Assembly: GCA_041661645.1 (NCBI GenBank) | Contig: JBAZUA010000002.1 | Span: forward strand, 19,670-83,669 | DNA length: 64,000 nucleotides | DNA from: Minisyncoccota bacterium | GTDB lineage: Bacteria; Patescibacteriota; Minisyncoccia; Phycocordibacterales; UBA6065 | Direction: 5' to 3' | Part shown: one piece after another, positions 13,615-32,386 of the stretch | How positions within the stretch are numbered: the first letter of the stretch is position 1 | Layout of the letters: each line of letters starts with the position of its first letter | Position numbers and translations under genes: made by a program | The notes under the pieces: model-generated | Told to the model about the DNA's origin: nothing | Database searches by the model: none | The model's input: only the letters and a program-made list of their open reading frames with translations

Positions 13615-13717
13615 GCTGAGAAGGGGTTGAGGCCGATTTTCGGTTTTCTCGGATGGAGGTTCTCGAAAATAGGGATGTGCCTTTGCTTTGCGAGTTGGCG
13701 TTCTCGGGATAGAACCA
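13615..13717 (+). pseudogene. Degenerate 3' remnant of a large-serine-recombinase gene that ends in repeat A (ttggcgttctcgggatagaacca).
   Basis: Positions 13695-13717 are identical to 18717-18739, which are the last codons (LAFSG*) of the recombinase at 17406-18734. The about 80 nt upstream are weakly similar to that gene's 3' end. No intact ORF is present. Confidence 0.45.
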
Positions 13718-13764
13718 AACGGTGCTATAACCAGCAATGCTTCTATGACATTTAAAATCATACC

Positions 13765-13785
13765 AAATCGACCCGTCCTGAGCGA
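13765..13785 (+). repeat. att-like core repeat B, copy 1 (aaatcgacccgtcctgagcga).
   Basis: Identical 21-mer at 18787-18807. Degenerate copies occur at 19625-19643 (accgacctatcctaagcga), 14500-14516 and 36397-36413 (gacgggtcctgagcga). Copy 1 and the 18787 copy both lie about 50 nt downstream of repeat A. Confidence 0.55.
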
Positions 13786-13788
13786 TTG

Positions 13789-14169
13789 CTAGAAACAGAT
13801 CTGTACAAGTATTTCGGCAACACTGCCTAGAATCGCAATAACTAATGAGCTTATGGCAATATATTTTGCCCGATCACTACTTTTCTTAGCTTCTCTAAGT
13901 TCGATGTAGCTCACCAAAGTAGATGCACCTGAGCTTGTTACGAAATAAAGGTACTCACCATTACCAGTGTGATGTGTACCCAGGTGTGCGATTAGTGGCG
14001 GTTCTCCTTGGATTTCTCCCAGCATCATTCTTTTTATCCATATCCACTCATCTTCATTACTAGTGATAGCCTCCTTGAGTTCATTAATTTTGAATCCCAG
14101 GGAACCTCTGTCAAAAGCCCACTGAAGAGCACGAACATGGAGGGGTTCTTTTGAGTTATTTTTTGTCAC
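13789..14169 (-). CDS. Hypothetical protein with a C-terminal transmembrane helix (126 aa).
   Basis: The ORF has a GTG start in the track. It is adjacent to and co-oriented with 14178-14462. I recognise no motif. Confidence 0.35.
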   Translation of the reverse strand: MTKNNSKEPLHVRALQWAFDRGSLGFKINELKEAITSNEDEWIWIKRMMLGEIQGEPPLIAHLGTHHTGNGEYLYFVTSSGASTLVSYIELREAKKSSDRAKYIAISSLVIAILGSVAEILVQICF

Positions 14170-14177
14170 AAAACAAG

Positions 14178-14462
14178 TTATTCAAGAGTCTCTTCACAGA
14201 TGTATGGCTTTCCCTGGGACAAGTCACAGTTTTTGCCACACTCGTAGTCATAATCAGAGTCAGTTGGGTTGTGTTTCGAGACCTGTTCGCCAACCCAGCT
14301 TCTGCAGGCCTCTATTGAATCAAAGGTATATGAACTCTGAATATCATTTGAGAGATTGCTTGCGTCTGGATAATAAAAACCAACATACTCATCGCCCTTC
14401 AGTAAAGAGAATCCCGCCCAACCGACCAAGACTATTAATATCAGGGTTATTAAATCTTTCAT
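14178..14462 (-). CDS. Small secreted/membrane-anchored protein, hypothetical.
   Basis: ATG start with an N-terminal hydrophobic segment (LITLILIVLVGWAGF). It contains 4 Cys. Confidence 0.4.
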   Translation of the reverse strand: MKDLITLILIVLVGWAGFSLLKGDEYVGFYYPDASNLSNDIQSSYTFDSIEACRSWVGEQVSKHNPTDSDYDYECGKNCDLSQGKPYICEETLE

Positions 14463-14499
14463 GTTCCAATTGTATCACTTTCGACAACTCTGCTAAGGG

Positions 14500-14539
14500 G
14501 ACAGGTCCCGAGCGATATAAACTAAACTCAACTTGGTTG
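14500..14539 (+). repeat. 40-bp direct repeat matching the flank of tRNA-Gln. This is the distal boundary of the island.
   Basis: gacaggtcccgagcgatataaactaaactcaacttggttg differs at 2 of 40 positions from 36397-36436. The 36397-36436 copy includes the last 6 nt of the tRNA-Gln gene. The sequences diverge completely outside the 40 bp. Confidence 0.7.
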
Positions 14540-14543
14540 ACCC

Positions 14544-14563
14544 TCTGGGACGATGTTGGAACC
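14544..14563 (+). repeat. Direct repeat C, copy 1 (tctgggacgatgttggaacc).
   Basis: Identical 20-mer at 15666-15685. The pair brackets a 1.1-kb segment holding one gene and two hairpins. Confidence 0.5.
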
Positions 14564-14673
14564 TTTCTGCCTGAAAGCGGTAATTGACATATAGGAATAT
14601 GATGATATTGTACCGCCAGGCTAGAACCCTGAAAAAACTTCACACAAACCACACAAATACGGAGGATCATTCC

Positions 14674-15438
14674 ATGGAATACACTTCAAGTTGCGCTTTT
14701 GTAGCACAGGGCGATATCGTAGTCGGCATCTCGTTTGGATCAGAGCCCTGCAGCGAGCACGAAAATGGGCATGGTGGGCTAAGGGAGGCGTTCGGCATTC
14801 CCCAAGAGTTGACCCGGGAAGTCTGCGGGATCGATGCCCGAACGATTACCAGGAGCCATCCGAAACTTCGGCTGATCGAGGCAGGGAATGTCTCATACCT
14901 CCTGTGTCCGCCCAATGAGACGGTCTACAAGGACATCTCGAATGAGCACATCGACCACATGGTTGGCTTTCTTCCTGGAAAAGGAGTTTCCGGCGCGTGG
15001 GACGACAGCTCTTTCGCGATTCGAATCGCTGGCGAGCATGCCCCATTCCTGAGACGCCTGCACGAGGCTTTTGAGGCAAAGGACATCGTCATCTTCCAGT
15101 CCGGCAAGGGCTTTTGCATGCCAGGCCTCTATTTAATTCTGAGGTCTGCCATGCCGAAGGAAAGCATTGAGGGTTTCGCTTCCGCCGATACCTCGCGCCT
15201 GAACCTGGCCGACGCCGTGGACGCATCGGGAATCAAGGAGCGCCTCAAGGCGGCCGGGAAAAAGTATCTCGCGCTCTCGCCTCGGTGGAGAGATGAAGGG
15301 AATGGTCTCTTCCTTCTCTGGCTCAATCCCTGGCACCAGGATGACGATAACTGCGGCTGGTTCACGGTCAGCGACCTCGATGACTGGATTCTCGGAAAGG
15401 GCCGCATTCCCAAGATGAAAGTCTGCTCAACGAGCTAA
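14674..15438 (+). CDS. Hypothetical protein (254 aa).
   Basis: An internal ATG preceded by a GGAGGA Shine-Dalgarno sequence. The track ORF at 14584 starts further upstream. I recognise no motif. Repeat C flanks it. Confidence 0.5.
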   Translation: MEYTSSCAFVAQGDIVVGISFGSEPCSEHENGHGGLREAFGIPQELTREVCGIDARTITRSHPKLRLIEAGNVSYLLCPPNETVYKDISNEHIDHMVGFLPGKGVSGAWDDSSFAIRIAGEHAPFLRRLHEAFEAKDIVIFQSGKGFCMPGLYLILRSAMPKESIEGFASADTSRLNLADAVDASGIKERLKAAGKKYLALSPRWRDEGNGLFLLWLNPWHQDDDNCGWFTVSDLDDWILGKGRIPKMKVCSTS

Positions 15439-15445
15439 ACGTTCT

Positions 15446-15481
15446 CACACCCACAGGTTTCGACCTGTGGGTGTTTTTTTG
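15446..15481 (+). terminator. Rho-independent terminator.
   Basis: acacccacagg-tttcga-cctgtgggtgt followed by a T7 run. Confidence 0.7.
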
Positions 15482-15609
15482 CCACCCTTTCCATCGACCC
15501 TTACAGGGTCAGTACGGGTTTCCCATTTCTTCGGAATTGGAATTCCTCAGAAATATGGGAGAACCCTTTCGATTCCAAGACGCGGGTCCATTGGACCCGC
15601 TTCCGTGAG

Positions 15610-15659
15610 ACAAACAAAAGAAAGGCCCCGTCATGCGACGGGGCCTTTCTTTTGTTTGT
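15610..15659. repeat. Perfect 23-bp-arm palindrome (acaaacaaaagaaaggccccgtc-atgc-gacggggcctttcttttgtttgt).
   Basis: Read directly. It is unusually long for a terminator and ends 7 nt before repeat C copy 2. Confidence 0.6.
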
Positions 15660-15665
15660 TGGCCG

Positions 15666-15685
15666 TCTGGGACGATGTTGGAACC
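15666..15685 (+). repeat. Direct repeat C, copy 2.
   Basis: Identical to 14544-14563. Confidence 0.5.
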
Positions 15686-15888
15686 CTGATTACCAGATAC
15701 CCTCTAGACGCTAAAAACAGATAAACTATTGACTTATTTAGAATCGTATATCCGTCTGAAAAATCTAAGTTCTAAAATATGCCTTTATAGAGCCATATAA
15801 TGGTAAAGTACATAGACGATCGTAACTTTATCTTGATTTAGACGCTTAAAAGTGCTATTCTGTAGGTACTAATAATCATTTAAACACC

Positions 15889-16428
15889 ATGTCCACAAAG
15901 AAATTCCTCGATCTGTATGAGTTCATAGACCGAGCGGTCAGAAGCAGGAAGTACCCCGAAAGCACAGCGCAGGGGCTTAGGGCGGCCCTTAAACTTTTTG
16001 AAGCCGAGCTGAATGAAGATGAAACGGCTTCTCTGGATGTGTTCAGGCAGAACATTGAACAAATTTATCAGAGCGTTGCCACCAATAACGGTAAACAGTA
16101 TAGCGCAGGATCACTCGCCACCTATAAATCTCGAATAGTAAAGGTGCTCGGCGACTATGAGAAGTATGGCATCGATCCGACCAAGATGGCAAGTTGGTCT
16201 CCAAAACTCATAACTCGAAGCCCGAAGAAGCAGGAGGAAAAAGTTTCTTCGGGAGAGAGCTCTGATCCGCAAGATGATGTGCCGTCTGTATCAGCTCAGG
16301 TGGGTATGCATAAGATTGAACTCGCCCTCCGACCAGATAAGAAGTTCGTTATTATCATCCCTCGAGATATAACTGTCGATGAGGCGAAGATAGTAAAGTC
16401 GGTTCTTGATTCTTTGACGAAAGAGTAA
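15889..16428 (+). CDS. Hypothetical protein (179 aa).
   Basis: ATG start after an AT-rich promoter-like region. A 10-bp-stem hairpin follows at about 16447-16473. I recognise no motif. Confidence 0.45.
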   Translation: MSTKKFLDLYEFIDRAVRSRKYPESTAQGLRAALKLFEAELNEDETASLDVFRQNIEQIYQSVATNNGKQYSAGSLATYKSRIVKVLGDYEKYGIDPTKMASWSPKLITRSPKKQEEKVSSGESSDPQDDVPSVSAQVGMHKIELALRPDKKFVIIIPRDITVDEAKIVKSVLDSLTKE

Positions 16429-16914
16429 GTCTTTGAGCATAAAGAACTGCCGTCTAATTTCTTAGACGGCAGCCCTGGGTGCTCAATACACCCCTGCAGA
16501 TTATTCACGATGGAAAGCGAGTGAAGCCTCAACGTAAGGTCGCCTCGCATCCCATGACCTTTCGGCTAAACCAGTATAGCCAAAAGGCTAATTCAGTCAA
16601 AGTTTAATGTATTCATACACAGTTAGAATTGAAATGCACAGCAACGTATTTCTGAACTTCTCACTTCTTCACATCAAGATGGCGGGTGAGGGTTTCAGCA
16701 GAACGATCGTGGCGGATAATGCTGTTGAGTACCATCTTCCGAGGGCGACTTATGTCATCCGTGGGACCCATCTTTCTTTGTCTCAGGTCCTAGAGGCTGC
16801 AACACGCGCCTTGGCGGGCACAGGACAGACGGGTGAGGTGCTCGTCAGTCAGACAAGTACTTGGAGGTGGAGTGGTCTTGCTCCAGTTAAGCGGTAACTT
16901 AAACGAATAAAAAA

Positions 16915-16953
16915 CTCCGTCGTGGCCCCTGGAAGCCACGACGGAGTTTTTTT
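16915..16953. terminator. Bidirectional intrinsic terminator.
   Basis: ctccgtcgtggc-ccctggaa-gccacgacggag with a 5' A-run and a 3' T7 run. Confidence 0.7.
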
Positions 16954-16964
16954 GCTGCCTTGAT

Positions 16965-17297
16965 TTACTTAATCTGGTTTCTAAGTTTTGCACCATTAAC
17001 TATTTCACTAATTGCTCTGGCGATTTCTTCAACACGTGTCTCGATAAGTTGGTTTGAAAATCTTTTAGTTAAGATATCATCACCATCAGAGTAGTGGTCA
17101 CGTTTTAGATCTGCGAGGATTTGCTTTGAATCGATATAGTGCTGTATTCCATCAATCTCAATAAATAGTTTTGCATCTGGGATGTATAAATCAACATGCT
17201 TATGTCCATCCCAGTACTCTGTCTTGACCTCAACACCTCTTTTCCTTAGCGCCTCCGCCAGTGCAATAGTCTGTTTTGTTGGTACGATAATTGGCAT
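16965..17297 (-). CDS. DUF559-like endonuclease-fold protein (Vsr/MutH-like restriction-endonuclease-like fold).
   Basis: YWDGHKHVDLYIPDAKLFIEIDGIQHY fits the DUF559 core (D...EVDG..H). The gene is AT-rich. Confidence 0.5.
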   Translation of the reverse strand: MPIIVPTKQTIALAEALRKRGVEVKTEYWDGHKHVDLYIPDAKLFIEIDGIQHYIDSKQILADLKRDHYSDGDDILTKRFSNQLIETRVEEIARAISEIVNGAKLRNQIK

Positions 17298-17405
17298 GGG
17301 ATACTAATTTGTATGCTACACTATAGTATGTAGAACCATGGTTAGCAACTGGCTACACTTTCGGTGTGGCTATAAACAAGCAAATACTCGTCCACTTCGG
17401 AAAGC

Positions 17406-18734
17406 GTGTCGGCAAAGGCTGTCGGTAGGCCAGTGTTCAACGAGCTTGTGAAGATGATTGTCTTGGGAAAGGCCGATGCGATTCTCTGTTGGAAGCTCGA
17501 TAGACTTGCGAGGAACTTCATTGACGGAGGACTTGTGATCGATTCTCTACAAAGGTCTGTCATTAAAGAAATAAGAACCTACGAATCAATACATCTTCCA
17601 AGCGATAACGTCCTCATGCTTGCCGTTCAACTTGGAATGGCGAATCAGTACATCAGGGATTTGAGCGTGAACGTGAAGAGAGGGAATCGAGAGAAGCTTT
17701 CCCGTGGCGGTTGGCCGAATCACGCCCCGTTCGGGTACTTGAATAACAAAGCGGACAAAACCATCGTCATCGACCCAATTAGGGCAAAGTACGTCCTGCG
17801 TACCTACGAGCTGTATCTATCGGGTACTCATGGCCTGAGAGATATTGAGAAAATTCTTTACGAAGAAGGGTTGCGGTCTAAGTCAGGAAAGCGAGTGCTC
17901 ATAAACCAGATTCACAGGATTCTATCCAGTCCCTTCTACACGGGCCTCATGGTCAGGGACGGAAAGTATTACGAGGGAAAGCACGAGCCAATTATCTCCA
18001 AGGAGACTTTCGACCGAGCGCAGGACATCCTGAACGACAAGGCCCGCCCAAAATCCAAGACTCTCTTCTTTCCGCTTCGTGGCTTCCTCAGATGCGGGAA
18101 TTGCGGTTGCGCCCTCACGTCCTCGCTCAAGAAGGGTCATCACTATTATTACTGCACCAACGGCAAGAAAATCTGCACCGAGCACAAGACATATCTCAGG
18201 GAGGTTAAGCTTTATTCCGTTCTGTCAGAGATATTCGGACATCTCGATTTTACCGAGCGAAAGATAGAGCTCATGTATCAGTCGGCGAAGGAAAGAACGG
18301 GCATCGATAGCACGTATTCGGAAAGGATAATAGACGGTCTTCAAACGAGCCTAGAATCGCTCAAGCCGAAGGAATCTAGGATACTCGACACTTTCCTCGC
18401 AGAACAGATTTCAAAAGAGCTGTACGACCAGAAAAGCCTCGCAATGCAGAACGAGCGAATCGCCCTGACGAAGCAGTTGAAAGAGGCCCAGTCGAAACAA
18501 ACTGCCGTAGCTTTGGAACCCATCAAGGAAGTCTTTTTAACGGCCAGCAGAGCCAAGAAAGAGTTTTTGGATGGAGATGACGCCAAAAAACACACGATTC
18601 TCAAAAACCTACTTTGGAACCTTTCCATCAAAGACAAAAAGGTGGCTTCGTTGAAGCTTAAAGATGTGTTTGAGGTTATGAGGAAAGCACCGAAAACCGA
18701 CGATATTTCTACTCTGTTGGCGTTCTCGGGATAG
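17406..18734 (+). pseudogene. 5'-truncated large serine recombinase. The catalytic Ser region is missing. The recombinase domain, zinc ribbon and coiled-coil are retained.
   Basis: It aligns with the intact paralog at 32653-33924 from GRPVFNELV / QRPVFKQLL onward. An in-frame TAA lies 11 codons upstream, so the roughly 85 N-terminal residues including the YARxS nucleophile are absent. The track start is a GTG. The C-terminus runs into repeat A and repeat B. Confidence 0.6.
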
Positions 18735-18786
18735 AACCAGACTGTGCCAATCAGGGCAAGGTGGTTCGGTCGTCGGTCACTCCATC

Positions 18787-18807
18787 AAATCGACCCGTCC
18801 TGAGCGA
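18787..18807 (+). repeat. att-like core repeat B, copy 2.
   Basis: Identical to 13765-13785. It lies 52 nt after the recombinase stop codon. Confidence 0.55.
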
Positions 18808-18812
18808 CCTGT

Positions 18813-19205
18813 TTATAGCTTGGAAACTAGTTCTTTAAGTTTCGCCGACGATTCGCGGGCAAGGAACTCCTCCTTAGTAAGCCATTCGAACTGGTCATGT
18901 TCATAGCTTAGGACTACGTTCGTGGAAACTGCATAAGCTTTGTATCCTATGCCGATCCAATATTCCTTCTTCTTGTTATATGAGCCTATTGCGTCAACAA
19001 GCTGTAGATCTTTGACCTCGATACCGACCTCTTCTTGTATTTCTCTCAACATGCTCACTTTTAGGTCTTCGCCTTCCTCAACTTCTCCACCTGGGAGGTC
19101 CCATGTAAGAGGCCTGCTTGGATCAGTCGCCGAGCGGCGTATGGCCAAAATCTTTCCTTCCTTATTCAGGATCGCTGTCTTTTGAGAGGCGTTGATGTTG
19201 GTCAT
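18813..19205 (-). CDS. NUDIX hydrolase.
   Basis: Nudix box GGEVEEGEDLKVSMLREIQEEVGI. Confidence 0.75.
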   Translation of the reverse strand: MTNINASQKTAILNKEGKILAIRRSATDPSRPLTWDLPGGEVEEGEDLKVSMLREIQEEVGIEVKDLQLVDAIGSYNKKKEYWIGIGYKAYAVSTNVVLSYEHDQFEWLTKEEFLARESSAKLKELVSKL

Positions 19206-19218
19206 GCTGGAAATCAGA

Positions 19219-19608
19219 TTAAGCCTTCAAGCTACCATCAAGAAAAGCTTTCAAGCCGATAAGATCCTTTTTCCCGTGATCGTAGAAATAGGTATTGATT
19301 CCCGCAGATCGAGCACTCTCTACCGCCTCTATGCTGTGCTCAAAGTAAACGACATCATTCTTGCTCAACTTGAAATGGCCGAGCATCAGCTCGAAGTACT
19401 TTGGATCGGTCTTCATGGGATTGCGTCTGAGGGTGAAGACTTCAAATGGCACCTTGTTCAATCCGAACTGCTCGAATTTATCATCGGGTGCGTTTGTGAG
19501 GATTATCTTTGTGTTGGGATACGAATCGAGCAGTACGCGCATCTCCTCGAAGATTTTTCCCTGATCTGAAACAAAGCAATCTACCGCGTCTACTAATATG
19601 GTTTTCAT
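19219..19608 (-). CDS. HAD-superfamily hydrolase-like small protein.
   Basis: The C-terminal FEHSIEAVESARSAGI resembles the HAD-IA motif FEDSxxGxxAAxAAG. The N-terminal ILVDAVDCF is a degenerate motif I. Confidence 0.4.
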   Translation of the reverse strand: MKTILVDAVDCFVSDQGKIFEEMRVLLDSYPNTKIILTNAPDDKFEQFGLNKVPFEVFTLRRNPMKTDPKYFELMLGHFKLSKNDVVYFEHSIEAVESARSAGINTYFYDHGKKDLIGLKAFLDGSLKA

Positions 19609-19624
19609 TAATTCAGTATACCAA

Positions 19625-19643
19625 ACCGACCTATCCTAAGCGA
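19625..19643 (+). repeat. att-like core repeat B, degenerate copy (accgacctatcctaagcga).
   Basis: It shares 15 of 19 positions with copy 1 and the upstream ataccaaa context. With the 18787 copy it brackets the NUDIX+HAD pair. Confidence 0.4.
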
Positions 19644-19649: not shown

Positions 19650-20006
19650 TTAGTATTCTCGCTTCTCAAAATTTATTTTTAGAGATACTAGAAAGTTTGT
19701 GAACCAAGAGCTGTAAAAGCAAAGATATGTAATCGCTATTAGATCGAATAGGTAGAAAAAGACCTTATGCTTAGCAGGAAAGGAAGTAATCTGAAACACC
19801 GCTGAAATTAAAAGTGTGATTATTGCTCCGGCCCATACCGCGAAAGAATCTCTGCTCTCCTTGCCTCTGGTCACGATGGCCGATTTCCCTCGGGTTAGGT
19901 CTATCCAGCCAGTGAATATCAAAGTTATCAAGATGACTGCCTGTAGGATTGTAAACCAGAGCTGATCACTGGTTAAAAGTCTTGCAATATAATATACGTT
20001 TTCCAT
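19650..20006 (-). CDS. Hypothetical membrane protein.
   Basis: The track ORF starts at a TTG (20057). An internal ATG gives a protein with about 4 transmembrane segments. The gene is AT-rich. Confidence 0.35.
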   Translation of the reverse strand: MENVYYIARLLTSDQLWFTILQAVILITLIFTGWIDLTRGKSAIVTRGKESRDSFAVWAGAIITLLISAVFQITSFPAKHKVFFYLFDLIAITYLCFYSSWFTNFLVSLKINFEKREY

Positions 20007-20075
20007 TTCTTCGGTTGGTTTATAAAAGTGACAATAGTGACACGCAAGCTTCTTCAATATTACACTCGACTGTCA

Positions 20076-20642
20076 CTAATTATAGACGCACAGCCCGTCG
20101 ATAATAGGGTTTATCACTGAATAGACTTGCCAGATGATGAGACTCGCGCCGAGGCCGTAGGTAACGAGGGCGAGCCATGAGTGCCTGCCCTGGTTCGCTT
20201 CCTTGAAGACATTCACGATTCCTTTACGTCTCCACTCCTCTTTGGCGTGCTCGTCGCCAAACAGCTCCCTGAACATTGAGCGCCCGAACTGGGCTATTAC
20301 ATACAGCCAGCCGATGCCTATGAGTGTCGTTACGGAATCATTCACCGTCCGTGCGGCCTCGGGCAGGTCGCAGTAGGATTGGCCGATGTAGATTATCAGG
20401 CTGAGGCCGACGCTGGCGGCGAGGAGGGATCGGAAGACGGCGTAGCCCGCCATGAACCAGAGAATTGAGAAGAACGTCCCGAAGACGATCAGGAACACCG
20501 TGGGCCCGATGGCCGTGAAAAACGGCGTCGCGATCATGAAGGTCGAGACGGCCGCAACACACAGGACGAATACGGAGAACGTCTTCAGATTCTTCTTGTT
20601 CGCCCTTATCTTTTCTGACAGTAGGTTTTTTATGAATTTCAT
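20076..20642 (-). CDS. Hypothetical polytopic membrane protein (188 aa).
   Basis: ATG start and several hydrophobic helices. I recognise no motif. Confidence 0.45.
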   Translation of the reverse strand: MKFIKNLLSEKIRANKKNLKTFSVFVLCVAAVSTFMIATPFFTAIGPTVFLIVFGTFFSILWFMAGYAVFRSLLAASVGLSLIIYIGQSYCDLPEAARTVNDSVTTLIGIGWLYVIAQFGRSMFRELFGDEHAKEEWRRKGIVNVFKEANQGRHSWLALVTYGLGASLIIWQVYSVINPIIDGLCVYN

Positions 20643-20646
20643 GGGT

Positions 20647-21957
20647 TTATCTTTTCTTTAGGCTCTTGCGACTGATCTTCTCCTCGGTTTCTTTCTTCTT
20701 CGCCTCCTCGCGGGCTTTAACCTCCTCTGGAGGCACGACGCGCAGGTGCTCCATTATTCCATATCCCTTAAGGTGCTCGCGCGGATCGACTAGCCTGTAC
20801 CACTTCTCGACGGTCGTCCAGTCCTTGCCGTCCTTCCTCTGCCTCACGGACTTCGATTCGACGAGATCCTTCGGCGGGAGGAAGCCTTTGTTGTCCTCCA
20901 GCAGGAAAAGCTCGACGTGGACGCCCTCGCCGTACTTGCTGACCGTTCTCGCCCTGATGATGCCGTCTCGGAGCCATTTCCTCAGCGTCTGGCCCTTGAC
21001 GTTGAAATAGTATTCCAGATCGAACTTGCTGTACCAGCTGCCCTTGTCGCTCGCGAGGGAGGCGGGTATCTCCCCGCCGTCGACGGCCTTCTGGCAGACG
21101 AGGCACTTGATGCCGTGTTCGTCGTACCAGTTGTCGCCCTCGGGGGTATGGTCGCCGCAGACGAAGCAGGTGTATCCCGCTCCCTCTAGATGGAAACCCT
21201 TCGGGTTCTGCCTGAGCCTCTCCGCGCGGGCATCCTCCTTCTTCTTGAATTCCTCTATGAACGCCGATGCCCGCTCCATGTTCCACTTCTCCTCCTGGAA
21301 CTTCCTGCCCTCCTCGTCGTTCATGCAGAAGCGGTCGCGGTCCCTGGAGAAGTTCTCGTCGATCTCTTCCTCCTTCCTTTGCGACCATTCGATCTCGTCT
21401 TTCTCCGCGTACCCGCACTTCGGGCAGGTGCGCGTCGTGAGAAGCCTCTTACCGTCGTCGTCAGTTTCGCTCTTGAGAGGGGCGTTGCAGTGCAGGCAGA
21501 GGCTCGGCTTTACCCTCCATTCTTCTCCGTCCGAAAAGAACGCTCGGCGTGGCACGCACTCGTTAGCGCAGTCGTACATGAACAGCACTCGGTCTGGCTT
21601 TCCCGACTCGGGCCACAGCTCCTTGAACGTGGGCTTCAGGCGGTTCCTGCACGCGAGGCATCGGATGTCCTCTGGCGCTCGGGCCGATTCGTACAGTTCG
21701 TCTCTCTCCTTGTCGGCGTCCATCCAGTCGCGGATTGTCTTCTCCTTGTTCAGGTACCTTTCTCCCATCTGGATGTGCAGGTACCAATCCAGAGCGACCC
21801 TCCTTATCCGAGCCGCCTCTTTCTTGTCGATTTTATCGTCTACAGGTAAGTCCGTGTCGTCTCTATCGAAAGACTGTTCTGTCTCACGGCACCGCTTGAC
21901 GGTGTGGCGGTCGTAGAGATCTATGTAGTGCTGCTTGGACTTTAAGTGCTTCTCCAT
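20647..21957 (-). CDS. Multi-zinc-ribbon protein, hypothetical (436 aa).
   Basis: At least three CxxC...CxxC pairs: CLACRN...CANEC, CLHCNA...CPKCGY and CFVCGD...CLVCQK. The N- and C-termini are charged. It is 4 nt from the next gene, so it is in an operon. Confidence 0.5.
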   Translation of the reverse strand: MEKHLKSKQHYIDLYDRHTVKRCRETEQSFDRDDTDLPVDDKIDKKEAARIRRVALDWYLHIQMGERYLNKEKTIRDWMDADKERDELYESARAPEDIRCLACRNRLKPTFKELWPESGKPDRVLFMYDCANECVPRRAFFSDGEEWRVKPSLCLHCNAPLKSETDDDGKRLLTTRTCPKCGYAEKDEIEWSQRKEEEIDENFSRDRDRFCMNDEEGRKFQEEKWNMERASAFIEEFKKKEDARAERLRQNPKGFHLEGAGYTCFVCGDHTPEGDNWYDEHGIKCLVCQKAVDGGEIPASLASDKGSWYSKFDLEYYFNVKGQTLRKWLRDGIIRARTVSKYGEGVHVELFLLEDNKGFLPPKDLVESKSVRQRKDGKDWTTVEKWYRLVDPREHLKGYGIMEHLRVVPPEEVKAREEAKKKETEEKISRKSLKKR

Positions 21958-21972
21958 GGTCTCTGAATTAAC

Positions 21973-22848
21973 CTAATCTTCCCATAGTTTGTCGCCATAA
22001 GGATCTACTATTTTACCATCGGGATTTCTGACCTCGAAATGCACGTGAGCAGCCGTTCCTCCCGTCTTCCACATTTCAAAGTTTCCGCTTTGTGCGATAA
22101 GTTGACCTTTTTCTACGCGGCAAGATTTATCCTGACTGTTTACAATCAAAGTTTCCAATTCATCGGTTAGTTTTGTGGAGTGCCTGAACCATGTAACAAA
22201 ACCGTTGTCATGTTTAATGTAAATCGAATGATCCTTTTCCCAGCAGGCGCCATATATCAAATCACTTCCTTGGATCGCTCGGTGCAGCTCTCCATCTGCG
22301 GGTGCAATAATAGGTGTCCCTGGAGAATAAGGAAAATCATATCCCGCGTGACCGTCATACTGCAAAGTGCATTTGCCCCCATCGGATCCCACCCCTACAT
22401 AGTTGATCTCCTTATTTGCAAAGAACTCACTCTGGTTTTCTTTTTGGTAACCACAGGGTTCTACAGGGCACTGTTTACCGAATCCGACCTCTCCATTGAA
22501 AGCTTTTACTCGCTGGTCTTTTGCAGGTTTACCCCAAAACTTCGTACTCTCTGGATCGATCGCCGTTCCTGAATGGTCAACAACAGCACTTATTCTTACT
22601 GTTCGCGAAGTAAGGGGCTTACCGTCAGTATGATTTCCTCTAATTGGGCAAATAAGGAAGCTGGTCTTTATCGGTTGAAGGACGGTTTCCTGTCTAATTT
22701 CTATGGGTACATCGACAATCATTTGCGTCTCCTTTGCTTCAGGATTTTTTGATAGAACAGGTTTGTTGATTACAAACGGCTTCGCACGCAATCCTTGCAG
22801 GAAAGCCATCAGGGAGTTGAGGATTTTTTGTAGATTGTTTGGTTGCAT
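21973..22848 (-). CDS. M23 (LytM-type) metallopeptidase domain protein with no signal peptide.
   Basis: HAGYDF (HxxxD) and GGTAAHVHFEV (HxH) motifs lie in the C-terminal half. An N-terminal domain of about 150 aa is of unknown function. Confidence 0.65.
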   Translation of the reverse strand: MQPNNLQKILNSLMAFLQGLRAKPFVINKPVLSKNPEAKETQMIVDVPIEIRQETVLQPIKTSFLICPIRGNHTDGKPLTSRTVRISAVVDHSGTAIDPESTKFWGKPAKDQRVKAFNGEVGFGKQCPVEPCGYQKENQSEFFANKEINYVGVGSDGGKCTLQYDGHAGYDFPYSPGTPIIAPADGELHRAIQGSDLIYGACWEKDHSIYIKHDNGFVTWFRHSTKLTDELETLIVNSQDKSCRVEKGQLIAQSGNFEMWKTGGTAAHVHFEVRNPDGKIVDPYGDKLWED

Positions 22849-22867
22849 GTGAAGCGGTGAGTTTATT

Positions 22868-24361
22868 TTATAGTGTTATGTCGTAAAGATGTTTCCAGAT
22901 GGCATACATGGCATAGGTATCCAGACCACAATAAGTTTTGAGATCCTTAATGATAGTCTGTTTCGACTCAGGAGAAATTAGGGACGACACCATGGTCCAC
23001 CAAGCATCCGCGGCCTGTCCACCCTCACGGATGTTAATATCACCATAACGCAAATCAGGCACAATCGCAGGAAGTACTTTTTTAATGGATGTCTTTCCAC
23101 GGAAATCCGGATGAATATAGTGCTGAGCGGTAAAAATCTCCTTCAGATCGTAGAGGGAATCATTAATCTTTCCGAACAGTTCTTTGTATTGAGGCAGTCG
23201 TAAGGCGATTTCGTCATTTACGCCCGCTTCGTATGACTTATGCCAGGCGATAAATGTACCGCCGGGAACAAAGTTCTCTTTAAGAATTCGTCCCACATGC
23301 TCCGAAGGGTCACTTAGGTCTTCGTGTAGAAATTCCACGTGCTCTGGTTTGCTCGTTGGACTCTTCAGAATATGCAGGGAAAATTGGAAAGGGATTCTCT
23401 TATAGGGGCTGAATCCATTAAATGCCGGAATCGCTGGACCATATGCTTCATAGTCAAAAAAATAAAGTGGGAAGCTCAACTTGCCTAAAATATCTTTTAT
23501 CGACCCTTTGTCAATTATTGGTTCCTGCCGCTCGTGAGCTAAAATCTGATTTCTCTGATTTTCTGAAAGTGCGAACTCCTCAGGAATATCCTTAAGATCA
23601 AAGATACCGCCTTCAATAAGAAGGTTGAGCTTTTTCTGACTTATATACGATATGTCGTGGACTGAATATTCAGGCACATGCGAATTGGAATACTGAAATG
23701 TCGCACAGTGCTTTTTCCTGCCGCGGTAGACACACTCGCAGCTACCCAAAGGTTCCTCTGCGCGGTTCAAATATTCACGGGCAGCCGCCATCTGCTTTTC
23801 AACACCATCAAGGACGGCTTTTACCTCTTCCGTCTTATCTTCAACAATAAAAAGCTTTGGGATGTCGAGGTCTCCCGAGCGGACGTACTCTTTGTTTAGG
23901 TGGACTATGTAATAGCTTCCGAGCGGAACTCCAACTCGCTTCAATACAGAGACTTGAAAAGCAACATCGTCGATATGGCTATGATCAGCGTCATGCTCCT
24001 TCACGGAGTTTCCTCCCTTAACTTCATACAGATCCCATACGCCAGTCACTTTGTTGAATGAAAGCATGTCGTTTCTCGCAATGAAGCCATCAACAATGAA
24101 GGTCGCCTGGAAAATCGTGGGCATCTTAGAATCCATTAGACGTACGGTTTCATGGCATGCGCCTTCACCGTTTGAAGACACTGCTATGCCACCGGGAAAT
24201 AAGTTGCGGGCACAGGATTCAACCTCGTTACCTTGCTGCATCAGATGTTTTTCAAAATCAGAGAGCTGAAATTTCTCAAGCAGAACGGGCTTGTGGAGCT
24301 TGAGCCACATATTCTTAGGGCAATAGAGATAATCGAGAAATATTGTTTTTGATATGCTCAT
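22868..24361 (-). CDS. DUF2779-like fusion of a RecB/Cas4-like PD-(D/E)xK nuclease and a DEDD 3'-5' exonuclease.
   Basis: The N-terminus FLDYLYCPKNMWLK and a Cys cluster (CECVYRGRKKHC) resemble Cas4/RecB-type nucleases. The C-terminal FFDYEAYG...GLDTYAMYAIWKHL fits DnaQ-like Exo motifs I and III. It lies 10 nt downstream of the SNF2 gene. Confidence 0.5.
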   Translation of the reverse strand: MSISKTIFLDYLYCPKNMWLKLHKPVLLEKFQLSDFEKHLMQQGNEVESCARNLFPGGIAVSSNGEGACHETVRLMDSKMPTIFQATFIVDGFIARNDMLSFNKVTGVWDLYEVKGGNSVKEHDADHSHIDDVAFQVSVLKRVGVPLGSYYIVHLNKEYVRSGDLDIPKLFIVEDKTEEVKAVLDGVEKQMAAAREYLNRAEEPLGSCECVYRGRKKHCATFQYSNSHVPEYSVHDISYISQKKLNLLIEGGIFDLKDIPEEFALSENQRNQILAHERQEPIIDKGSIKDILGKLSFPLYFFDYEAYGPAIPAFNGFSPYKRIPFQFSLHILKSPTSKPEHVEFLHEDLSDPSEHVGRILKENFVPGGTFIAWHKSYEAGVNDEIALRLPQYKELFGKINDSLYDLKEIFTAQHYIHPDFRGKTSIKKVLPAIVPDLRYGDINIREGGQAADAWWTMVSSLISPESKQTIIKDLKTYCGLDTYAMYAIWKHLYDITL

Positions 24362-24370
24362 AGGAGCGGG

Positions 24371-27300
24371 TTAATTTTCAAGCCACCCATTGTTTAGTCG
24401 CTGGCCTTTGGCGATTCGTCCGATAACTACTCCGTCCTTGATTGAATAAATAAATCCTGCGTGTCGAACTACTAGCCTTAGCATGGTCCTGATTTCCATG
24501 CAGATTGCCAAGTTGCTCCCATCGGGAGACATCTCTGCCGCTTCGATCTGACACTTTCCCTTACCCAAGATCTTTGACGCTGCTGTAATTGCAGAAGGCC
24601 ATATTTCGGATTTATCCGCTTTTCGGTTAGTTCCCTCAAGAAGCTTCACGAGTACTTCCAGGCGATTTTGTTCACCAGAGATGACGTATTCAAAATATAC
24701 AGAGACGCCTGTTAGGTGACAGGCCCTAAGATCATTCGGATGACACTTGCGCCCACTCCATGCACACGCCTTCGCTTCGGCAGGGGCGCAGAAATCACCA
24801 GTAACGGACCTCACCCCTTCTTCTTCGAGCATTCTAGCATCGGAAATACTGCTTGAGATAAAGAATTTCTTCAGTGCTTTCTTTCCAGATACGGCACTTT
24901 TCTCAAGGAGGTCAGGGAGCACCATCTTTCCCGATACCGTACAGCTTTCAAGCATTCCAGGCATTACAATCTTGCCAGTCACCTCACACTTTTCCGCCTC
25001 ACCTGGCAATAATGGCTTATTGGTCTCGGAGCAGAATGTAAACTCTTGCTTATGGCCTGATTTGCCCGATACGGCAGAGCGTAACTCCTCGTCAGTACGA
25101 TATTTCTTTCCTGAAACTTGGCTAACCGCCAATTCTGTCTTTAGAACATCCGTCAATGTAAACTGGCAACGTCCGAAGAATTCGGGTTCTGCCTGTTTGC
25201 CGCTCATGTCCGATTCTTTAAGAAGGGTGCTTACGATCATGTGTCCTGTGATGGCGGATTTTTTGACCTCATCTTCAAGCACTCGCTTACCACTTAAGTC
25301 GCAAGTAACCATATGATTAGAGAGAGCCAGTCTTCCACTGGTGTCTGACTTCGCAAGCAGGTGGTGTAATGCCTTGAGGCCGCTTATTTCGCACTTAGCC
25401 AGACAATCTTCAGGGACTGTTCTGCCGGTCTGGGAGCACTTTCCCATGATAGGCCCATCGACGATCTCATTTGCAGAAGGGATAATCGTAAGATTGCTTG
25501 TCTGGTTAGTATCAGAATCGATGCTGTATGAGACAGATACCTTCAACTTTCTTCGAGCCGCCCCTTCTAAGCCAACAAGGGAAAACTCAAGAGTGGGGGT
25601 AAAATCGCTCTCTATCTTTTTAATCTTTCGCTGATCATAGCCGGCGGAATTAATCTCGTCAGCCAATCTCTCCCTGTAGAATCTACAAAATTCCATTACT
25701 CCAGAATCAGAATTTGCCCTTTCAAGCAGATTCTTCACATTCACGCCGATCGACGAGGGTTCTTTTAACGGATTATTTATTGAATCAAAACCAAATCTCG
25801 TCTCGTCGCTAAAATGCTCGTTTGGAGAGCAGATCACCTCGATCAATCTTTCGTAGCTATCATGCGCAACAGTCACGCGCGCCCTCACGAGTGCGGAACC
25901 GCTAAAACAGCACGACGTGCTCTTCGTATCAAAACCTTTAAGCTGACCGCCAAATTTTTCAACCCAACTTTTAATCAATATGTCGGCCTGTTTGGACGAA
26001 TTCGTATCCGCATCCTTAACAAGGTGCAGTCCTTTGCCTGTTATTTTTCGTACCAGCCTTTCAAAAGAGGGCGTGCCAGGACCGTACAGTGTGCTAGTAA
26101 ATAGAGTTCCCGCACCTCCTGCATCCGTTTTATTTTCAAAACGGATCAACTCTCGCTTTCCGTCTAATTCCGATATATGAAGGTCAGAGGCTTTTTCGTG
26201 AGACAGCTTAGCACCTATGCTTTCGAGAGCCTTCAACGTGAAATCACGGGCCTCCATGGATTTAACGGAAGGTGGCAATTGCGGAACCTCGGGTCCCACA
26301 TCTCCTCTCATATCTCCGAGCAGTGAGTTTATATTTTTCTCTTCTTTCTCAAGCTGTACCTTGGCGTCTGATATGCTTTTAGCTGCCTTTCGAGTAGCTT
26401 CTTCGATGTCTTTACCGGCAAGAGAAGCCACCACAAGCTTTCTGATTTTTTCTTCGAAGCCATTCGTTCCGTCTTCCTCTTCATCGATTCCCGATGCTTC
26501 GAGCAACGCTTCAACATCACCAATAGCATGAGAGGCCATTTGTAGCTTCTCCATAAGGCGTCCAACGATATATTCCTCGAATGTCCCCTTGAGAACAATA
26601 TTAAAGATACAAACCTTTTCATGTTCTGAGGCAAGGCGTTGTATACGACCGATTCGCTGCTCTACGATCATTGGATTCCAAGGGAGATCGTAGTTTACAA
26701 GCACGTTCGCAGCCTGAAGGTTAACACCTTCGGAACCAGCTTCGGTAGAGATGATCGCGTGAATCTTTGGCGGTTTCGTTTTGAACTTGCTGATCGTATC
26801 CTGATTGCGGCCCGCTGAATCGCCGTTAATGACATCGCAGGTAACGCCTCGCTCTTCAAGAAAGGCTTGAATTGTCGTCTGGGTTTCTCGTCGGCAGGTA
26901 AAGATCACCATTCGCCAATCTTTTGGCTGTTCTGATTTGAGTTTGTCGACCAGTGCGCCCAAACCCTCTAGCTTTGACGTCACGAAACCGCGATCAACTA
27001 TCGCTTTAACCTGCTCGGCGAGTTCCTTAGGAACCGTTTCTTTTTTTGCCATAGCCTTTAGCTGTGCGGAAACGGCATGAGGGCTGCTTATGAGAGCCTG
27101 AAGTATAGAAATCTGGGCGAGACGGTTCAGTTTTTGAATTGACGCGCCAATGATCTTAATAAGCTCCTTTTCATGTTTGGTAGGTTCGACGGTATGGAGT
27201 TGAACCACTCGCTCTGGAAAGTGCAGATTGGCATCTGCACGTCTAACTCGAGACATATATCCGTAGACAATGGATCGGAACTCATCCTTCATCTCTGGGT

Positions 27301-28081
27301 TCAATTTGCGAGCCTGAGTGCGATCGTCATCGATAAACTTTCGACTGAATGCGCCTGCGTTTCCGAACGGATTTTCATGACCACGCGCCACGGTCAAAAG
27401 ATCTACCAATGAATAAAGATCCCACAGTCGATTTTGAATAGGGGTGGCCGTGAGCATGAGAACGTATTTGAAAACACGATCAGATAGAACTTTACGGAAT
27501 TTCTGGGCGACCTGGGGTGGTGGATCAACCCCGTAGAGGTTTCTGAGTTTATGAGCTTCGTCCAATATGAGCATGTCGAATCCGGCTTTCGAAAGATGGT
27601 CGAGATAGAGGCGTGCAGACTGGTATGTGGTGATCACGGCCCCGACTTCACCGGGCGGTTTTGCGTCCGCAAGGTCTTTTCCTGTCAGGATTACCGATGG
27701 AATCCCGAATTTAGTCTCTAGTTCCTCTTGCCACTGCTTGCCGAGGATCTTGGGACAAACTATCAGAATCTTTTCTAGGCGGCCGCGTGCGATCAATTCG
27801 CTTGCCACCAGACCTGCACTAATCGTCTTTCCAAGACCAACGTCGTCAGCCAAAAGGGTTACGGGAAGACGACGACAGAACGTGATGAGATTAGACACCT
27901 GATGGTTGTAGGGTTCAATTTTGTCCTTCCACCTGCTTGTTGATTTTAGATCCTCTCGTTTCTCAATAACAATAGGATCGATAAGATCCCATTCTAATGC
28001 GGCTCGATATAAATTGTATTGCTCTGGACTAGTAGAGTTCTCTAAGGGCTTGATTTGAATTGATGAAGTTGTTTTGTCCAT
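24371..28081 (-). CDS. SNF2-family (DEAH-box) helicase/translocase with a C-terminal array of short SGK-type repeats of about 650 aa (1236 aa in total).
   Basis: Walker A LADDVGLGKT, DEAHKLRN, TATPIQN, and helicase-C QRIGRIQR. The C-terminal half carries at least 12 tandem repeats of about 15 aa, of the type C/S-x-V/I-S/T-G-K-x-V/A-L/M-x3-L-x-K/E-S. Confidence 0.8.
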   Translation of the reverse strand: MDKTTSSIQIKPLENSTSPEQYNLYRAALEWDLIDPIVIEKREDLKSTSRWKDKIEPYNHQVSNLITFCRRLPVTLLADDVGLGKTISAGLVASELIARGRLEKILIVCPKILGKQWQEELETKFGIPSVILTGKDLADAKPPGEVGAVITTYQSARLYLDHLSKAGFDMLILDEAHKLRNLYGVDPPPQVAQKFRKVLSDRVFKYVLMLTATPIQNRLWDLYSLVDLLTVARGHENPFGNAGAFSRKFIDDDRTQARKLNPEMKDEFRSIVYGYMSRVRRADANLHFPERVVQLHTVEPTKHEKELIKIIGASIQKLNRLAQISILQALISSPHAVSAQLKAMAKKETVPKELAEQVKAIVDRGFVTSKLEGLGALVDKLKSEQPKDWRMVIFTCRRETQTTIQAFLEERGVTCDVINGDSAGRNQDTISKFKTKPPKIHAIISTEAGSEGVNLQAANVLVNYDLPWNPMIVEQRIGRIQRLASEHEKVCIFNIVLKGTFEEYIVGRLMEKLQMASHAIGDVEALLEASGIDEEEDGTNGFEEKIRKLVVASLAGKDIEEATRKAAKSISDAKVQLEKEEKNINSLLGDMRGDVGPEVPQLPPSVKSMEARDFTLKALESIGAKLSHEKASDLHISELDGKRELIRFENKTDAGGAGTLFTSTLYGPGTPSFERLVRKITGKGLHLVKDADTNSSKQADILIKSWVEKFGGQLKGFDTKSTSCCFSGSALVRARVTVAHDSYERLIEVICSPNEHFSDETRFGFDSINNPLKEPSSIGVNVKNLLERANSDSGVMEFCRFYRERLADEINSAGYDQRKIKKIESDFTPTLEFSLVGLEGAARRKLKVSVSYSIDSDTNQTSNLTIIPSANEIVDGPIMGKCSQTGRTVPEDCLAKCEISGLKALHHLLAKSDTSGRLALSNHMVTCDLSGKRVLEDEVKKSAITGHMIVSTLLKESDMSGKQAEPEFFGRCQFTLTDVLKTELAVSQVSGKKYRTDEELRSAVSGKSGHKQEFTFCSETNKPLLPGEAEKCEVTGKIVMPGMLESCTVSGKMVLPDLLEKSAVSGKKALKKFFISSSISDARMLEEEGVRSVTGDFCAPAEAKACAWSGRKCHPNDLRACHLTGVSVYFEYVISGEQNRLEVLVKLLEGTNRKADKSEIWPSAITAASKILGKGKCQIEAAEMSPDGSNLAICMEIRTMLRLVVRHAGFIYSIKDGVVIGRIAKGQRLNNGWLEN

Positions 28082-28397
28082 TTTCCGAGCAAGAATTCGT
28101 CAGAGGGGCTATTGGGGTACTTAAAATATAGCACTATATTCATTCTTTTTCTTCTGACGAAATTGCTGTATAATATTGTTAACACTAATTCCCTCGGCAG
28201 TACCAGGGGACCGAAAACCAGACAGGGCCGAGCACCCGACTTGGAGAAGCTGTTCAGAGACAGAAACATGCCGAGCGACAACCTCGCTAGGCGAAAGCTG
28301 ATCAGCGGAAAGCAGTACTTGAGCTGATGCGTCAAAATCTAGAAACCATTTCTGGATTTTTTGCCTGCCAGTTTATACAAGGTAACCACCTAAAAAT

Positions 28398-31582: not shown

Positions 31583-31584
31583 GC

Positions 31585-32289: not shown

Positions 32290-32386
32290 GTTATATATCT
32301 AAAGCTATTAATATCGTGGCGGGTAAATACAAAAAGCCCACCACTAGGTAGAGCCGAGGCTCATATCTCAAGTTTCCCTGAAATAG

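Follow-up and report, generated by a model that had tools for sequence, protein, structure and literature searches.

Candidate accretion array of large serine integrase units at the 3′ tip of a tRNA-Gln gene in a Candidatus Paceibacterota genome

Arrays in which unrelated integrative units are stacked 3′ of an intact tRNA gene are known from the islands described with Islander and TIGER and from tandem integrative and conjugative or mobilizable elements (ICE-IME), such as those at tRNA-Lys in Streptococcus agalactiae; their oldest units are decayed, their joints lie in direct orientation and their cargo is variable (PMC7192596, PMC5704250). In the literature that we searched, tRNA targeting was a property of tyrosine integrases only (PMC7192596, PMC5704250), and the use of t(m)RNA genes by serine integrases was considered unreported and in need of proof (PMC7192596). 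Here we analyze a stretch of 64,000 nucleotides from Candidatus Paceibacterota, within the candidate phyla radiation (CPR), which we call the window and to which coordinates refer unless another locus is named. It holds a low-GC mosaic of ~23 kb whose right edge lies at the 3′ end of an intact tRNA-Gln(CTG) gene (36431 to 36504, minus strand; ARAGORN, and Rfam with 61.3 bits), the anchor of an array that shares all the above features. Whereas the known arrays have tyrosine integrases and direct repeats of tRNA fragments, this one has large serine recombinases only, with a core of ~4 to 7 nt at the CCA tip, and some of its units carry a mimic of the tRNA end in place of a true fragment. With a probability of roughly 0.68, we consider that the interval between 13615 and 19643 is the older part of an accretion array, built from serine-integrase units that were stacked at the tip of tRNA-Gln(CTG) by exchange at the tetranucleotide TTGG and that later decayed.

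The tycheposons of Prochlorococcus are also comparable, being small to mid-size integrative elements with replication genes and cargo that are arrayed beside tRNAs and build flexible islands in streamlined genomes, but 910 of 937 use tyrosine recombinases, they belong to a different phylum, and their attachment (att) sites are classical partial-tRNA repeats (bioRxiv 10.1101/2020.12.28.424599). For CPR bacteria, our literature search yielded no paper on elements with tRNA-targeting serine integrases. Accretion at tRNA genes is in itself known, and what appears to be new, judging from sequence comparison, is the presence of serine integrases on tRNA tips in CPR bacteria. The locus also shows how flexible islands are built in these reduced genomes, where the biology of mobile elements is poorly known.

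All the breakpoints of similarity in the island fall on TTGG, the reverse complement of the encoded CCA of the tRNA plus one base, at positions 13695, 14533, 15659, 18717 and 36430. At the leftmost joint (J0, 13695) the tail of a structured non-coding element is followed by TTGG and by a tRNA-like sequence that we call the A-box, while J3 (18717) has a truncated integrase to its left and a second A-box to its right. The two joints between them have the element-side half-site P′ (see below) on the right, preceded by TTGACCCT at J1 (14533) and by CCGT at J2 (15659); the left side of J2 is a terminator tail, and that of J1 is a repeat resembling the B-core described below plus 17 nt. Finally, J5 (36430) links a B-core variant plus the same length of DNA to tRNA-Gln itself. 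When J1 and J5 were compared (14488 to 14539 against 36385 to 36436), they were alike through TTGGTTG and divergent after it, and J0 and J3 (13694 and 18716) were alike only from GTTGG rightward. The mosaic is also evident in the base composition, with GC values from 0.38 to 0.54 in the segments between 13.7 and 36.4 kb (0.42, 0.54, 0.46, 0.46, 0.48, 0.52 and 0.38) against 0.56 to 0.58 in the flanks. A syntenic relative, L144 (gene order ApbE-DoxX ... tRNA-Gln ... GDSL-Zincin), has a tRNA-Gln gene 96% identical to that of the window, and the DNA to the left of TTGG is unrelated; a different array of 4.4 kb is found there between DoxX and the tRNA, and the place is therefore a variable hotspot.

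The recombinase found inside the interval is a member of a family that counts at least 247 loci in GTDB species-representative genomes, 80 of which were kept for analysis. These come overwhelmingly from metagenome-assembled genomes of CPR/Patescibacteria, and their proteins are 40 to 70% identical to the truncated one of the window. The 3′ end of an antisense tRNA was found within 25 nt of the end of the recombinase homology in 67 of the 80 loci and, in three more, 159 to 172 nt away behind a small inserted unit; the remaining ten had no tRNA, and five of them end less than 60 nt after the gene. Thirteen tRNA types are in use (Gln in 24 cases, Ser in 22, Ile in 7, and others). Many integrase open reading frames (ORFs) read into the antisense tRNA (...DSNQD..LQR..SYH*), so that the C-terminal tail of the protein is dictated by the target. 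In L014, L016, L017, L019, L021 and others, the ORF passes through an antisense tRNA-Gln, ~60 nt after the end of the homology. Complete elements measure ~4.4 to 7 kb and are ordered P′, cargo, rolling-circle Rep (PF23343), an integrase of ~500 amino acids and the tRNA, their cargo including an MFS transporter, NYN, AbiEii-like ATPase, Fic, methylase and DUF559 genes. Small units of 150 to 170 nt were also seen between the integrase stop and the tRNA (L022, 11311 to 11501; L058, 11311 to 11500 and 5826 to 5942; L060, 7909 to 8095), flanked by exact copies of 19 to 22 nt of the tRNA 3′ end, from the tip to the T-loop; in L058 and L060, the unit is repeated at the far end of the element.

Like the phage serine integrases (Bxb1, phiC31, A118, TP901-1), members of this family combine Resolvase, Recombinase and zinc ribbon domains, have attP beside the integrase gene and use a short core. 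They differ from these phage integrases in their target, a tRNA gene end (as read from sequence) rather than a protein-coding gene or an intergenic site, in an integrase ORF that ends in target-derived sequence, and in their vehicle, which is not a phage but a 4.4-to-7-kb element with a rolling-circle Rep. A single family of this size, which behaves consistently at the ends of so many tRNA types and whose att anatomy can be read directly, offers an explanation, open to testing, for the apparent avoidance of tRNAs by serine integrases. It would also provide many natural pairs of serine integrase and att sites in which attB, being a tRNA end, is conserved across organisms, and might be of practical interest for genome engineering.

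The 18-mer CTGGGACGATGTTGGAAC is the family-wide element-side half-site P′ and is contained in what the original prediction, a reading of the interval made from its letters, had listed as 40-bp repeats; neither this motif nor the tRNA-Gln gene, which together define the system, had been recognized there. Allowing up to four mismatches, the recombinase strand contained 79 copies, spread over 55 of the 80 loci, and the opposite strand only three, with the nearest copy at a median distance of 5.36 kb upstream of the recombinase stop, and always preceded by 5 to 9 nt equal to the local tRNA tip. Perfect copies are located in the window at 14545 and 15667. Arrays of two to six P′ sites are common in family loci, and the integrase C terminus, the tip and P′ are fused in several other genomes (L018, L019, L022 at 816, and L073 at 6315), the fusions of L022 and L073 having the form expected of a joint between two stacked elements. 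Tandem stacking is therefore usual for the family.

In characterized serine integrases (A118-type model), the outer motif of element-side half-sites lies ~5 bp further out than that of target-side half-sites. When the tRNA arm (TTGCTG, 5 nt and CTTGGACTCGAACC) was compared with P′ (TTGCTG, 5 nt and CTGGTACGAAGTTGGAACC), the inner motif (CTKGKA) was in the same register and the outer GAACC was 5 nt further out in P′. This geometry holds in the five loci compared and in two pairs from the window, tRNA-Gln with 14537 to 14562 and the A-box with 15663 to 15684. The A-box is in register with the P′ of J2, with four bases between TTGG and CTSGG in both; its "acceptor" measures 4 nt versus 8 nt in the tRNA, and it has its own class of matching P′ sites (15663 to 15684, L109 and L144). 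Comparison of the half-sites thus points to att sites of the serine-integrase type, of ~40 to 56 bp with a short core and a 5-bp offset.

The best-defined unit is E1, the small element between 15659 and 18720. Its attL is J2 (TTGG at 15659 to 15662, then CCGT and CTGGGACGATGTTGGAAC up to 15684) and its attR is J3. E1 cargo (15889 to 17297) consists of genes for phrog_2602 and phrog_8894 proteins on the plus strand and of a DUF559 endonuclease-like gene on the minus strand, with DUF559 homologs in the elements of L013, L019, L027, L032 and L049. At the right end, a plus-strand gene with possible starts at 17376 and 17406 and a stop at 18734 retains the Recombinase (PF07508, 4.8e-16) and Zn_ribbon_recom (PF13408, 4.7e-07) domains, but its match to Resolvase (PF00239) covers profile positions 43 to 144 only. 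The ~60 N-terminal residues, including the catalytic serine, are absent, there are in-frame stops upstream, and similarity to the 80 relatives begins only at 17395 to 17400, full-length relatives having 497 to 507 amino acids. This gene is a pseudogene of the large serine recombinase family, and its last six codons (LAFSG) and stop are part of the second A-box (18716 to 18747; TTGG at 18717 to 18720), a position at which 67 of the 80 relatives have a tRNA 3′ end, as had been recognized from the start for a 23-mer at 18717, read as the end of a 5′-truncated recombinase. Compared with complete relatives, E1 also lacks the Rep gene, and its P′ lies 3.07 kb upstream of the recombinase stop versus the family median given above; comparison with relatives puts its deletion at 1.5 to 2.4 kb. 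E1 landed in an A-box site and not in the tRNA itself, and the loss of Rep and of the start of the integrase gene came later.

The joint anatomy, the family-wide tRNA association, the conservation of the motifs and the decay of E1 are observed, and they would be explained as follows. At least four to five integrative units of different origin would form a head-to-tail stack on the 3′ tip of tRNA-Gln(CTG), the enzymes being large serine integrases of the CPR-wide family. The end of the tRNA gene (trailer, tip, and acceptor/T-arm) would serve as attB, and attP would straddle the integrase stop codon, with the C-terminal arm of the integrase gene, TTGG or tip, and P′. Integrase dimers would pair the attP of a circular element with the target and exchange strands within or beside TTGG; with the exchange at the tip, the tRNA would stay intact and a tRNA-type arm would be kept beside the integrase. 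Each event would leave joints made of a left arm, TTGG and a right arm, without a long duplication. The right arms are of two kinds, P′ or a tRNA-like arm of attB type, either the real tRNA or the A-box CGTTCTCGGGATAGAACC, whose T-arm spacing is 5 nt shorter than that of P′. Some units would belong to a second class, with a 91-nt module at the left end; on the right they close, as seen in L107 and in the window, with a B-core variant followed by 17 nt and TTGG. As they would carry a mimic of the tRNA end, and with it a fresh landing site, elements would pile up.

The 23-mer that had been noted upstream of two B-core copies is indeed part of a longer repeat, the A-box, of 32 nt and 30/32 identity (13694 to 13725, with TTGG at 13695 to 13698, and 18716 to 18747, both plus strand). 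Both the A copies and the B-core copies are 5,022 nt apart, and therefore 38 nt separate A and B in each module. The two spacers (type a, 13726 to 13763; type b, 18748 to 18785) are unrelated to each other (12/38 identical positions), type a being closer to the spacers of L107 and L109 (23 to 29/38). Altogether, TTGG, the A-box, 38 nt and the B-core make up the 91-nt module, which has sharp bounds and flanks at background identity. In the pairwise comparison of four instances (two from the window, L107 and L109), identity was 26 to 29/31 in the A-box and 10 to 29/38 in the spacer, and the B-core was identical (22/22) in all six pairs. The left neighbors of the module vary (an integrase, a terminator tail, a gene start), as does the cargo to its right; constant amid such variation, it forms the conserved left terminus of the second-class units. 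In diverged form (TTGG/CTGG-CCGACTCGAG(A/C)TAGA(G/A)CC ... GACGG(T/C)ACT(T/C)GAGC), it directly follows an intact family integrase in L029 and opens the array in L144.

At J0, the 23-mer at 13695 had been considered the surviving stub of a recombinase gene, a reading that we could not sustain. A profile of the last 70 residues of the family (79 sequences), searched against six frames of the window, matched only 17376 to 18731 (E 7e-31) and nothing between 13615 and 13710 even at E ≤100, and the DNA left of 13694 belongs to the structured element. The peptide NRDVPLLC encoded there resembles by eye the KNxDFxxLC of the family, a candidate stub that was dropped when the profile gave no match. 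The codons AFSG* form part of the target-type half-site, on the right-hand side of TTGG, much as the ORFs of relatives continue into antisense tRNA; what is found at 13695 is therefore a landing site in second copy and not the relic of a gene.

The resemblance of the A-box to the tRNA (CTCGGGATAGAACCA against CTTGGAATCGAACCA, 12/15 positions of the T-arm stretch) is open to another interpretation, that of a classical tRNA island in which the A-box is a displaced and decaying 3′ fragment of tRNA-Gln, the crossover took place inside the tRNA, in its T-loop, an old tRNA trailer survives as the B-core-like sequence with its 17 nt, and att is a long imperfect direct repeat of the trailer and the tRNA 3′ part. 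If E1 and the unit to its left (C_b) were removed, 14494 to 14536 followed by 18721 to 18747 would indeed parallel 36391 to 36463 (trailer, TTGG, tRNA 3′ part); elements or the 150-to-170-nt units are flanked in L013, L034, L059, L090, L022, L058 and L060 by 17 to 22 nt that exactly copy the tRNA end as far as the T-loop; and four further assemblies have the 17-nt trailer on the left of TTGG, namely L107, L109 and, in diverged form, L141 and L144. Of the two ends of an Islander-type island, an intact tRNA and a displaced copy of its 3′ part, the first is present as tRNA-Gln; for the second, the exact repeat is only TTGGTTG and the A-box is a diverged look-alike. However, the four A-boxes share one derived sequence (~20/29 to tRNA-Gln by eye, with one gap), yet the 3′ part of the tRNA differs by only one base among the window, L107 and L144, and independent decay would not converge in this way. 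The 4-nt acceptor, in register with a P′ class of its own, argues for a used site rather than a relic, and no tyrosine integrase domain (Phage_integrase) was found in the 26 island ORFs compared to Pfam or in the subset compared to PHROGs. We regard this interpretation as improbable. We also considered the 92-nt module from A to B as a tRNA pseudogene, possibly one with a long variable arm, a candidate that was rejected, as ARAGORN and Rfam gave nothing, there is no 5′ acceptor strand and it folds no better than shuffled sequences.

The B-core, CAAATCGACCCGTCCTGAGCGA, was the motif on which the original prediction centered, at 13765, 18787 and, degenerate, 19625, and the three copies are there: exact at 13764 to 13785 and 18786 to 18807, and with 18 of 22 positions at 19622 to 19643, where three of the four differences are G-to-A or C-to-T. 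A further degenerate copy lies at 36391 to 36412 (17/22) and a fifth, weaker one, GGGGACAGGTCCCGAGCGA, at 14497 to 14515. With up to three mismatches, the 17-mer core had five matches in the window against 0.18 expected, and none of 100 shuffled sequences reached five; a minus-strand match at 18123, inside the recombinase gene, looks like chance. Similarity between copies stops sharply after GCGA. The pattern GAC..GTCCTGAGCGA is common to the left and right copies, whereas the two or three bases that follow GAC distinguish them, the left ones carrying GACCCGTC and the right ones GACGGGTC, and the pairs were reconstructed as ...CAAATCGACCC|GTCCTGAGCGATATAAAC... and ...AAAGACGACGG|GTCCTGAGCGACCTGTTT....

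These features could be taken to mean that the B-core is the att core of a serine recombinase, each copy marking one integration of an integrase with its att site and the 23-mer at 13695 being the last remnant of one such integrase. The copies do flank variable cargo as direct repeats (13764/14494; 18786/19622/36391; 565/1066 in L107), their similarity has the sharp end and the common sequence just described, the 22-mer is perfectly conserved, and the copy at 36391 has the gene of an intact recombinase, LSR2, at a distance of 2.5 kb. Nevertheless, the B-core is not the joint: the breakpoints are at TTGG, and the B-core sits 38 nt inside one end of the units and, in some, 17 nt inside the other. 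The joint coincides with the integrase stop/tRNA tip in 67 of the 80 relatives and does not lie 50 nt further on, neither the 80 family loci nor six viral contigs bearing LSR2 showed a B-core-like sequence, and to the left of 13694 there is a different conserved element and no recombinase coding signal. At 19622, the middle copy is bordered by the constant flank of the left type, an outcome that simple tandem insertion at the B-core would not give, and an L144 unit with an A-box lacks a right-hand copy. An att core in the B-core is thus unlikely, although somewhat less so than the classical island. The broader proposal made with it, serial capture at one site followed by decay, fits the hotspot, the stacked units and the decayed recombinase, and it is the roles assigned to the motifs that had to be changed.

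Three other ideas about these sites were discarded. The B-core as a mirrored P′ half-site or as a copy of the integrase C-terminal arm is suggested by short resemblances (ACCAAA.CGAC, ATCG..TCC.GAG) that have the wrong spacing to TTGG. A CC versus GG crossover dinucleotide in the B-core (GACCCGTC/GACGGGTC) implies inverted polarity, yet the flanks are repeated in direct orientation. For the phage-like block that carries LSR2, an intact attP was sought in six LSR2 relatives from IMG/VR, which share the ParB-methylase/terminase module without A-box or B-core.

The motifs might instead be generic repeats or expression signals, such as terminators or promoters, with no link to recombination. The B-cores are found 3 to 6 nt past the stop codons of minus-strand cargo genes and a TATACT-like −10 box adjoins some of them, both of which favor this view. 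However, the folds of the modules compared with shuffled sequences gave z values of ~0 on three of four strand folds and −1.8 on the fourth, with no hairpin signal, and an Rfam search of the modules matched no family. The copies in the window are confined to the island or its edge, unlike dispersed repeats such as repetitive extragenic palindromic sequences (REP) or miniature inverted-repeat transposable elements (MITE). Frequent occurrence at unrelated loci had been named beforehand as the finding that would reduce both motifs to a generic dispersed repeat, and it was not what we saw: the A 22-mer had no match in IMG/VR, the B 17-mer had eight there, all in unrelated contexts, and of 42 metagenomic matches to a B 18-mer, 40 were due to chance and only L107 and L109 were related, both with the whole module of A-box, spacer and B-core. 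The repeats are non-random and lineage-specific, and we find an explanation by expression signals or generic repeats very improbable, far more so than the two preceding ones. The L107 unit runs from the A-box through 38 nt, the B-core, a single gene, GGCGGGTCCTGAGCGA, 17 nt and TTGG to tRNA-Gln(UUG), and the four identical B-cores stem from at least three assemblies.

The short, mostly same-orientation cargo genes with a conserved repeat a few bases past the stop are also reminiscent of integron cassettes, but the island has no IntI tyrosine recombinase, no palindrome or fold resembling attC and only five copies of the repeat. The B-core is under strong constraint, and its complete conservation implies some function; our best guess is a protein-binding terminal site of the second-class units and possibly a second attachment site. 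More speculatively, CPR bacteria might have a system of two layers, in which serine integrases act on tRNA tips and integrase-less or phage-like landing-pad units with A-box and B-core form an integron-like cassette platform. We hold this larger scheme to be doubtful, if less so than any of the alternatives above. If it were true, the units with A-boxes would be portable landing pads, elements with integrases could stack without touching the tRNA, cargo would be exchanged between B-cores, and the tRNA mimics and the invariant B-core would represent new mechanistic elements.

A conserved element of ~130 nt with a strong fold (z −4.7 and −5.6) adjoins the att joints, usually after the last 14 to 22 nt of the local tRNA and before a terminator and TTGG. 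In the window it is found at 15493 to 15625 and, truncated, at 13630 to 13693 (plus strand), where it closes the unit on the left-hand side of J0 and aligns (alignment A1) with 15493 to 15600 and with L109, L013, L060 and L021; L109 963 to 993 matches 13644 to 13674 at 90%. The other copies are in L013 (1717 to 1900), L021 (16676 to 16762), L060 (7931 to 8070), L109 (865 to 1030), L141 (4695 to 4860) and L144 (5216 to 5380 and 5905 to 6080). Its Rfam matches were only terminator-like and below threshold, with no credible family, and it could be a non-coding RNA, a rolling-circle replication origin or a miniature mobile unit.

Several observations weigh against an accretion array of serine-integrase units. 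The interval's own recombinase is dead, and LSR2, which is intact, shares only 35 to 38% identity with the tRNA-targeting family. The A-box is only modestly similar to the tRNA-Gln of the window, with a position-blind p of 0.002 to 0.02, and in L144 a unit with an A-box-like end has no recognizable B-core on its right. The left-arm motif GYTCCAA coincides with conserved codons (A/T-P-K), and its apparent dyad symmetry may therefore be a coding artefact. We found no excision product, empty site or strain polymorphism: exact-protein look-ups of the flanking genes, made for strain variants without a unit, gave the same gene order only, and other assemblies of the same population keep that order. 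We infer the exact crossover position from the breakpoints and from characterized serine integrases, and likewise which integrase moved which unit and in what order. In addition, strict attP × attB rules do not by themselves place a unit with a tRNA-like arm between the integrase stop and the tRNA; such a placement would need composite circles, resident decoy sites or a second enzyme, for example, LSR2 acting on sites of its own.

The remaining features of the array, from left to right, can be described as follows. Between J0 and J1, unit C_a begins with the first B-core copy (left-type terminal repeat, plus strand), which is 3 nt past the stop of the minus-strand gene 13789 to 14169, and its cargo consists of two small minus-strand genes (13789 to 14462; 126 and 94 amino acids; GC 0.42) with no family match. 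Its right end (14494 to 14536) comprises the weak B-core, the 17-nt TATAAACTAAACTCAAC and the joint TTGG (14533 to 14536). Unit C_b opens with the family-wide P′ half-site (TTGACCCT then CTGGGACGATGTTGGAAC, 14537 to 14562), contains a plus-strand gene of 254 amino acids (14674 to 15438), also with no family match, and ends with the structured element and a terminator hairpin (to 15655). To the right of E1, the second B-core copy lies 5 nt past the stop of a minus-strand NUDIX hydrolase gene (18813 to 19205), which is followed by a weakly HAD-like gene (cargo, 18813 to 19608, minus strand) and by the degenerate B-core at 19622 to 19643, between two minus-strand genes.

A phage-like block extends from 19650 to 33924 with genes for an M23 peptidase, DUF2779, an SNF2 helicase, a ParB-methylase, small and large terminases and LSR2, and is syntenic in L029 (M23, ParB-methylase, terminases and LSR2) and in the IMG/VR contigs L135 to L140. 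LSR2 (32551 to 33924) is an uninterrupted ORF with all three domains (PF00239, 2.4e-23, profile positions 3 to 143; PF07508; PF13408) and matches the phrog_95 integrase (1.6e-67). The region of its stop (33909 to 33924) reads GTTGCC-TTGG-GATGA and could be another joint; GC falls from 0.52 to 0.38 just after it, and no repeat supports it. Upstream of LSR2, ~100 nt of non-coding DNA (32324 to 32436) are 75 to 78% identical to stretches in L015, L019, L025 and L057, located 1.3 to 1.8 kb upstream of the start of recombinase homology in the first three and 4.6 kb in L057. The last segment before the tRNA contains two minus-strand genes of unknown function (GC 0.38) and a bidirectional terminator (33925 to 36390), and, taken up to 36429, it may be yet another inserted unit.

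The array reaches the tRNA at 36391 to 36433 (plus strand), where AAAGACGACGGGTCCTGAGCGA, a right-type B-core, precedes the 17-nt TATAAACTAAACTCAAC and the TTGG of the joint (36430 to 36433), an arm that also adjoins tRNA-Gln(UUG) in L107 and an 18-nt fragment of the tRNA 3′ end in L109. The 63-nt stretch 36385 to 36447, which extends from the B-core variant across the 17 nt and TTGG into the adjoining bases of the tRNA, is repeated at 14488 to 14550 with 81% identity (alignment A2). L107 (1096 to 1169) and the window (36431 to 36504) have the same 40-nt trailer and the same 3′ 30 nt of the tRNA (~97% identical), joined to tRNA-Gln bodies with different anticodon arms, UUG and CUG, respectively. 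In the Logan assembly of SRR18595301, contigs end at ~14688 and ~36470, either side of the island, which could be due to repeats or to population heterogeneity. Beyond the tRNA, a CitMHS transporter gene is located between tRNA-Gln and the GDSL esterase gene in L141 (8697 to 9971) and L144 (7072 to 8346) and is absent from the window (36505 to 36602), and a YafQ/RelB-like toxin-antitoxin pair (37635 to 38216) lies just past this flank. Further low-GC patches (0.40 to 0.45) at 57000 to 59000 and 61000 to 62000 may be other islands, as may be marked by the near-identical hairpin terminators GAAAAACACCTCAAT...ATTGAGGTGTTTTT at 56786, 61262 and 63828.

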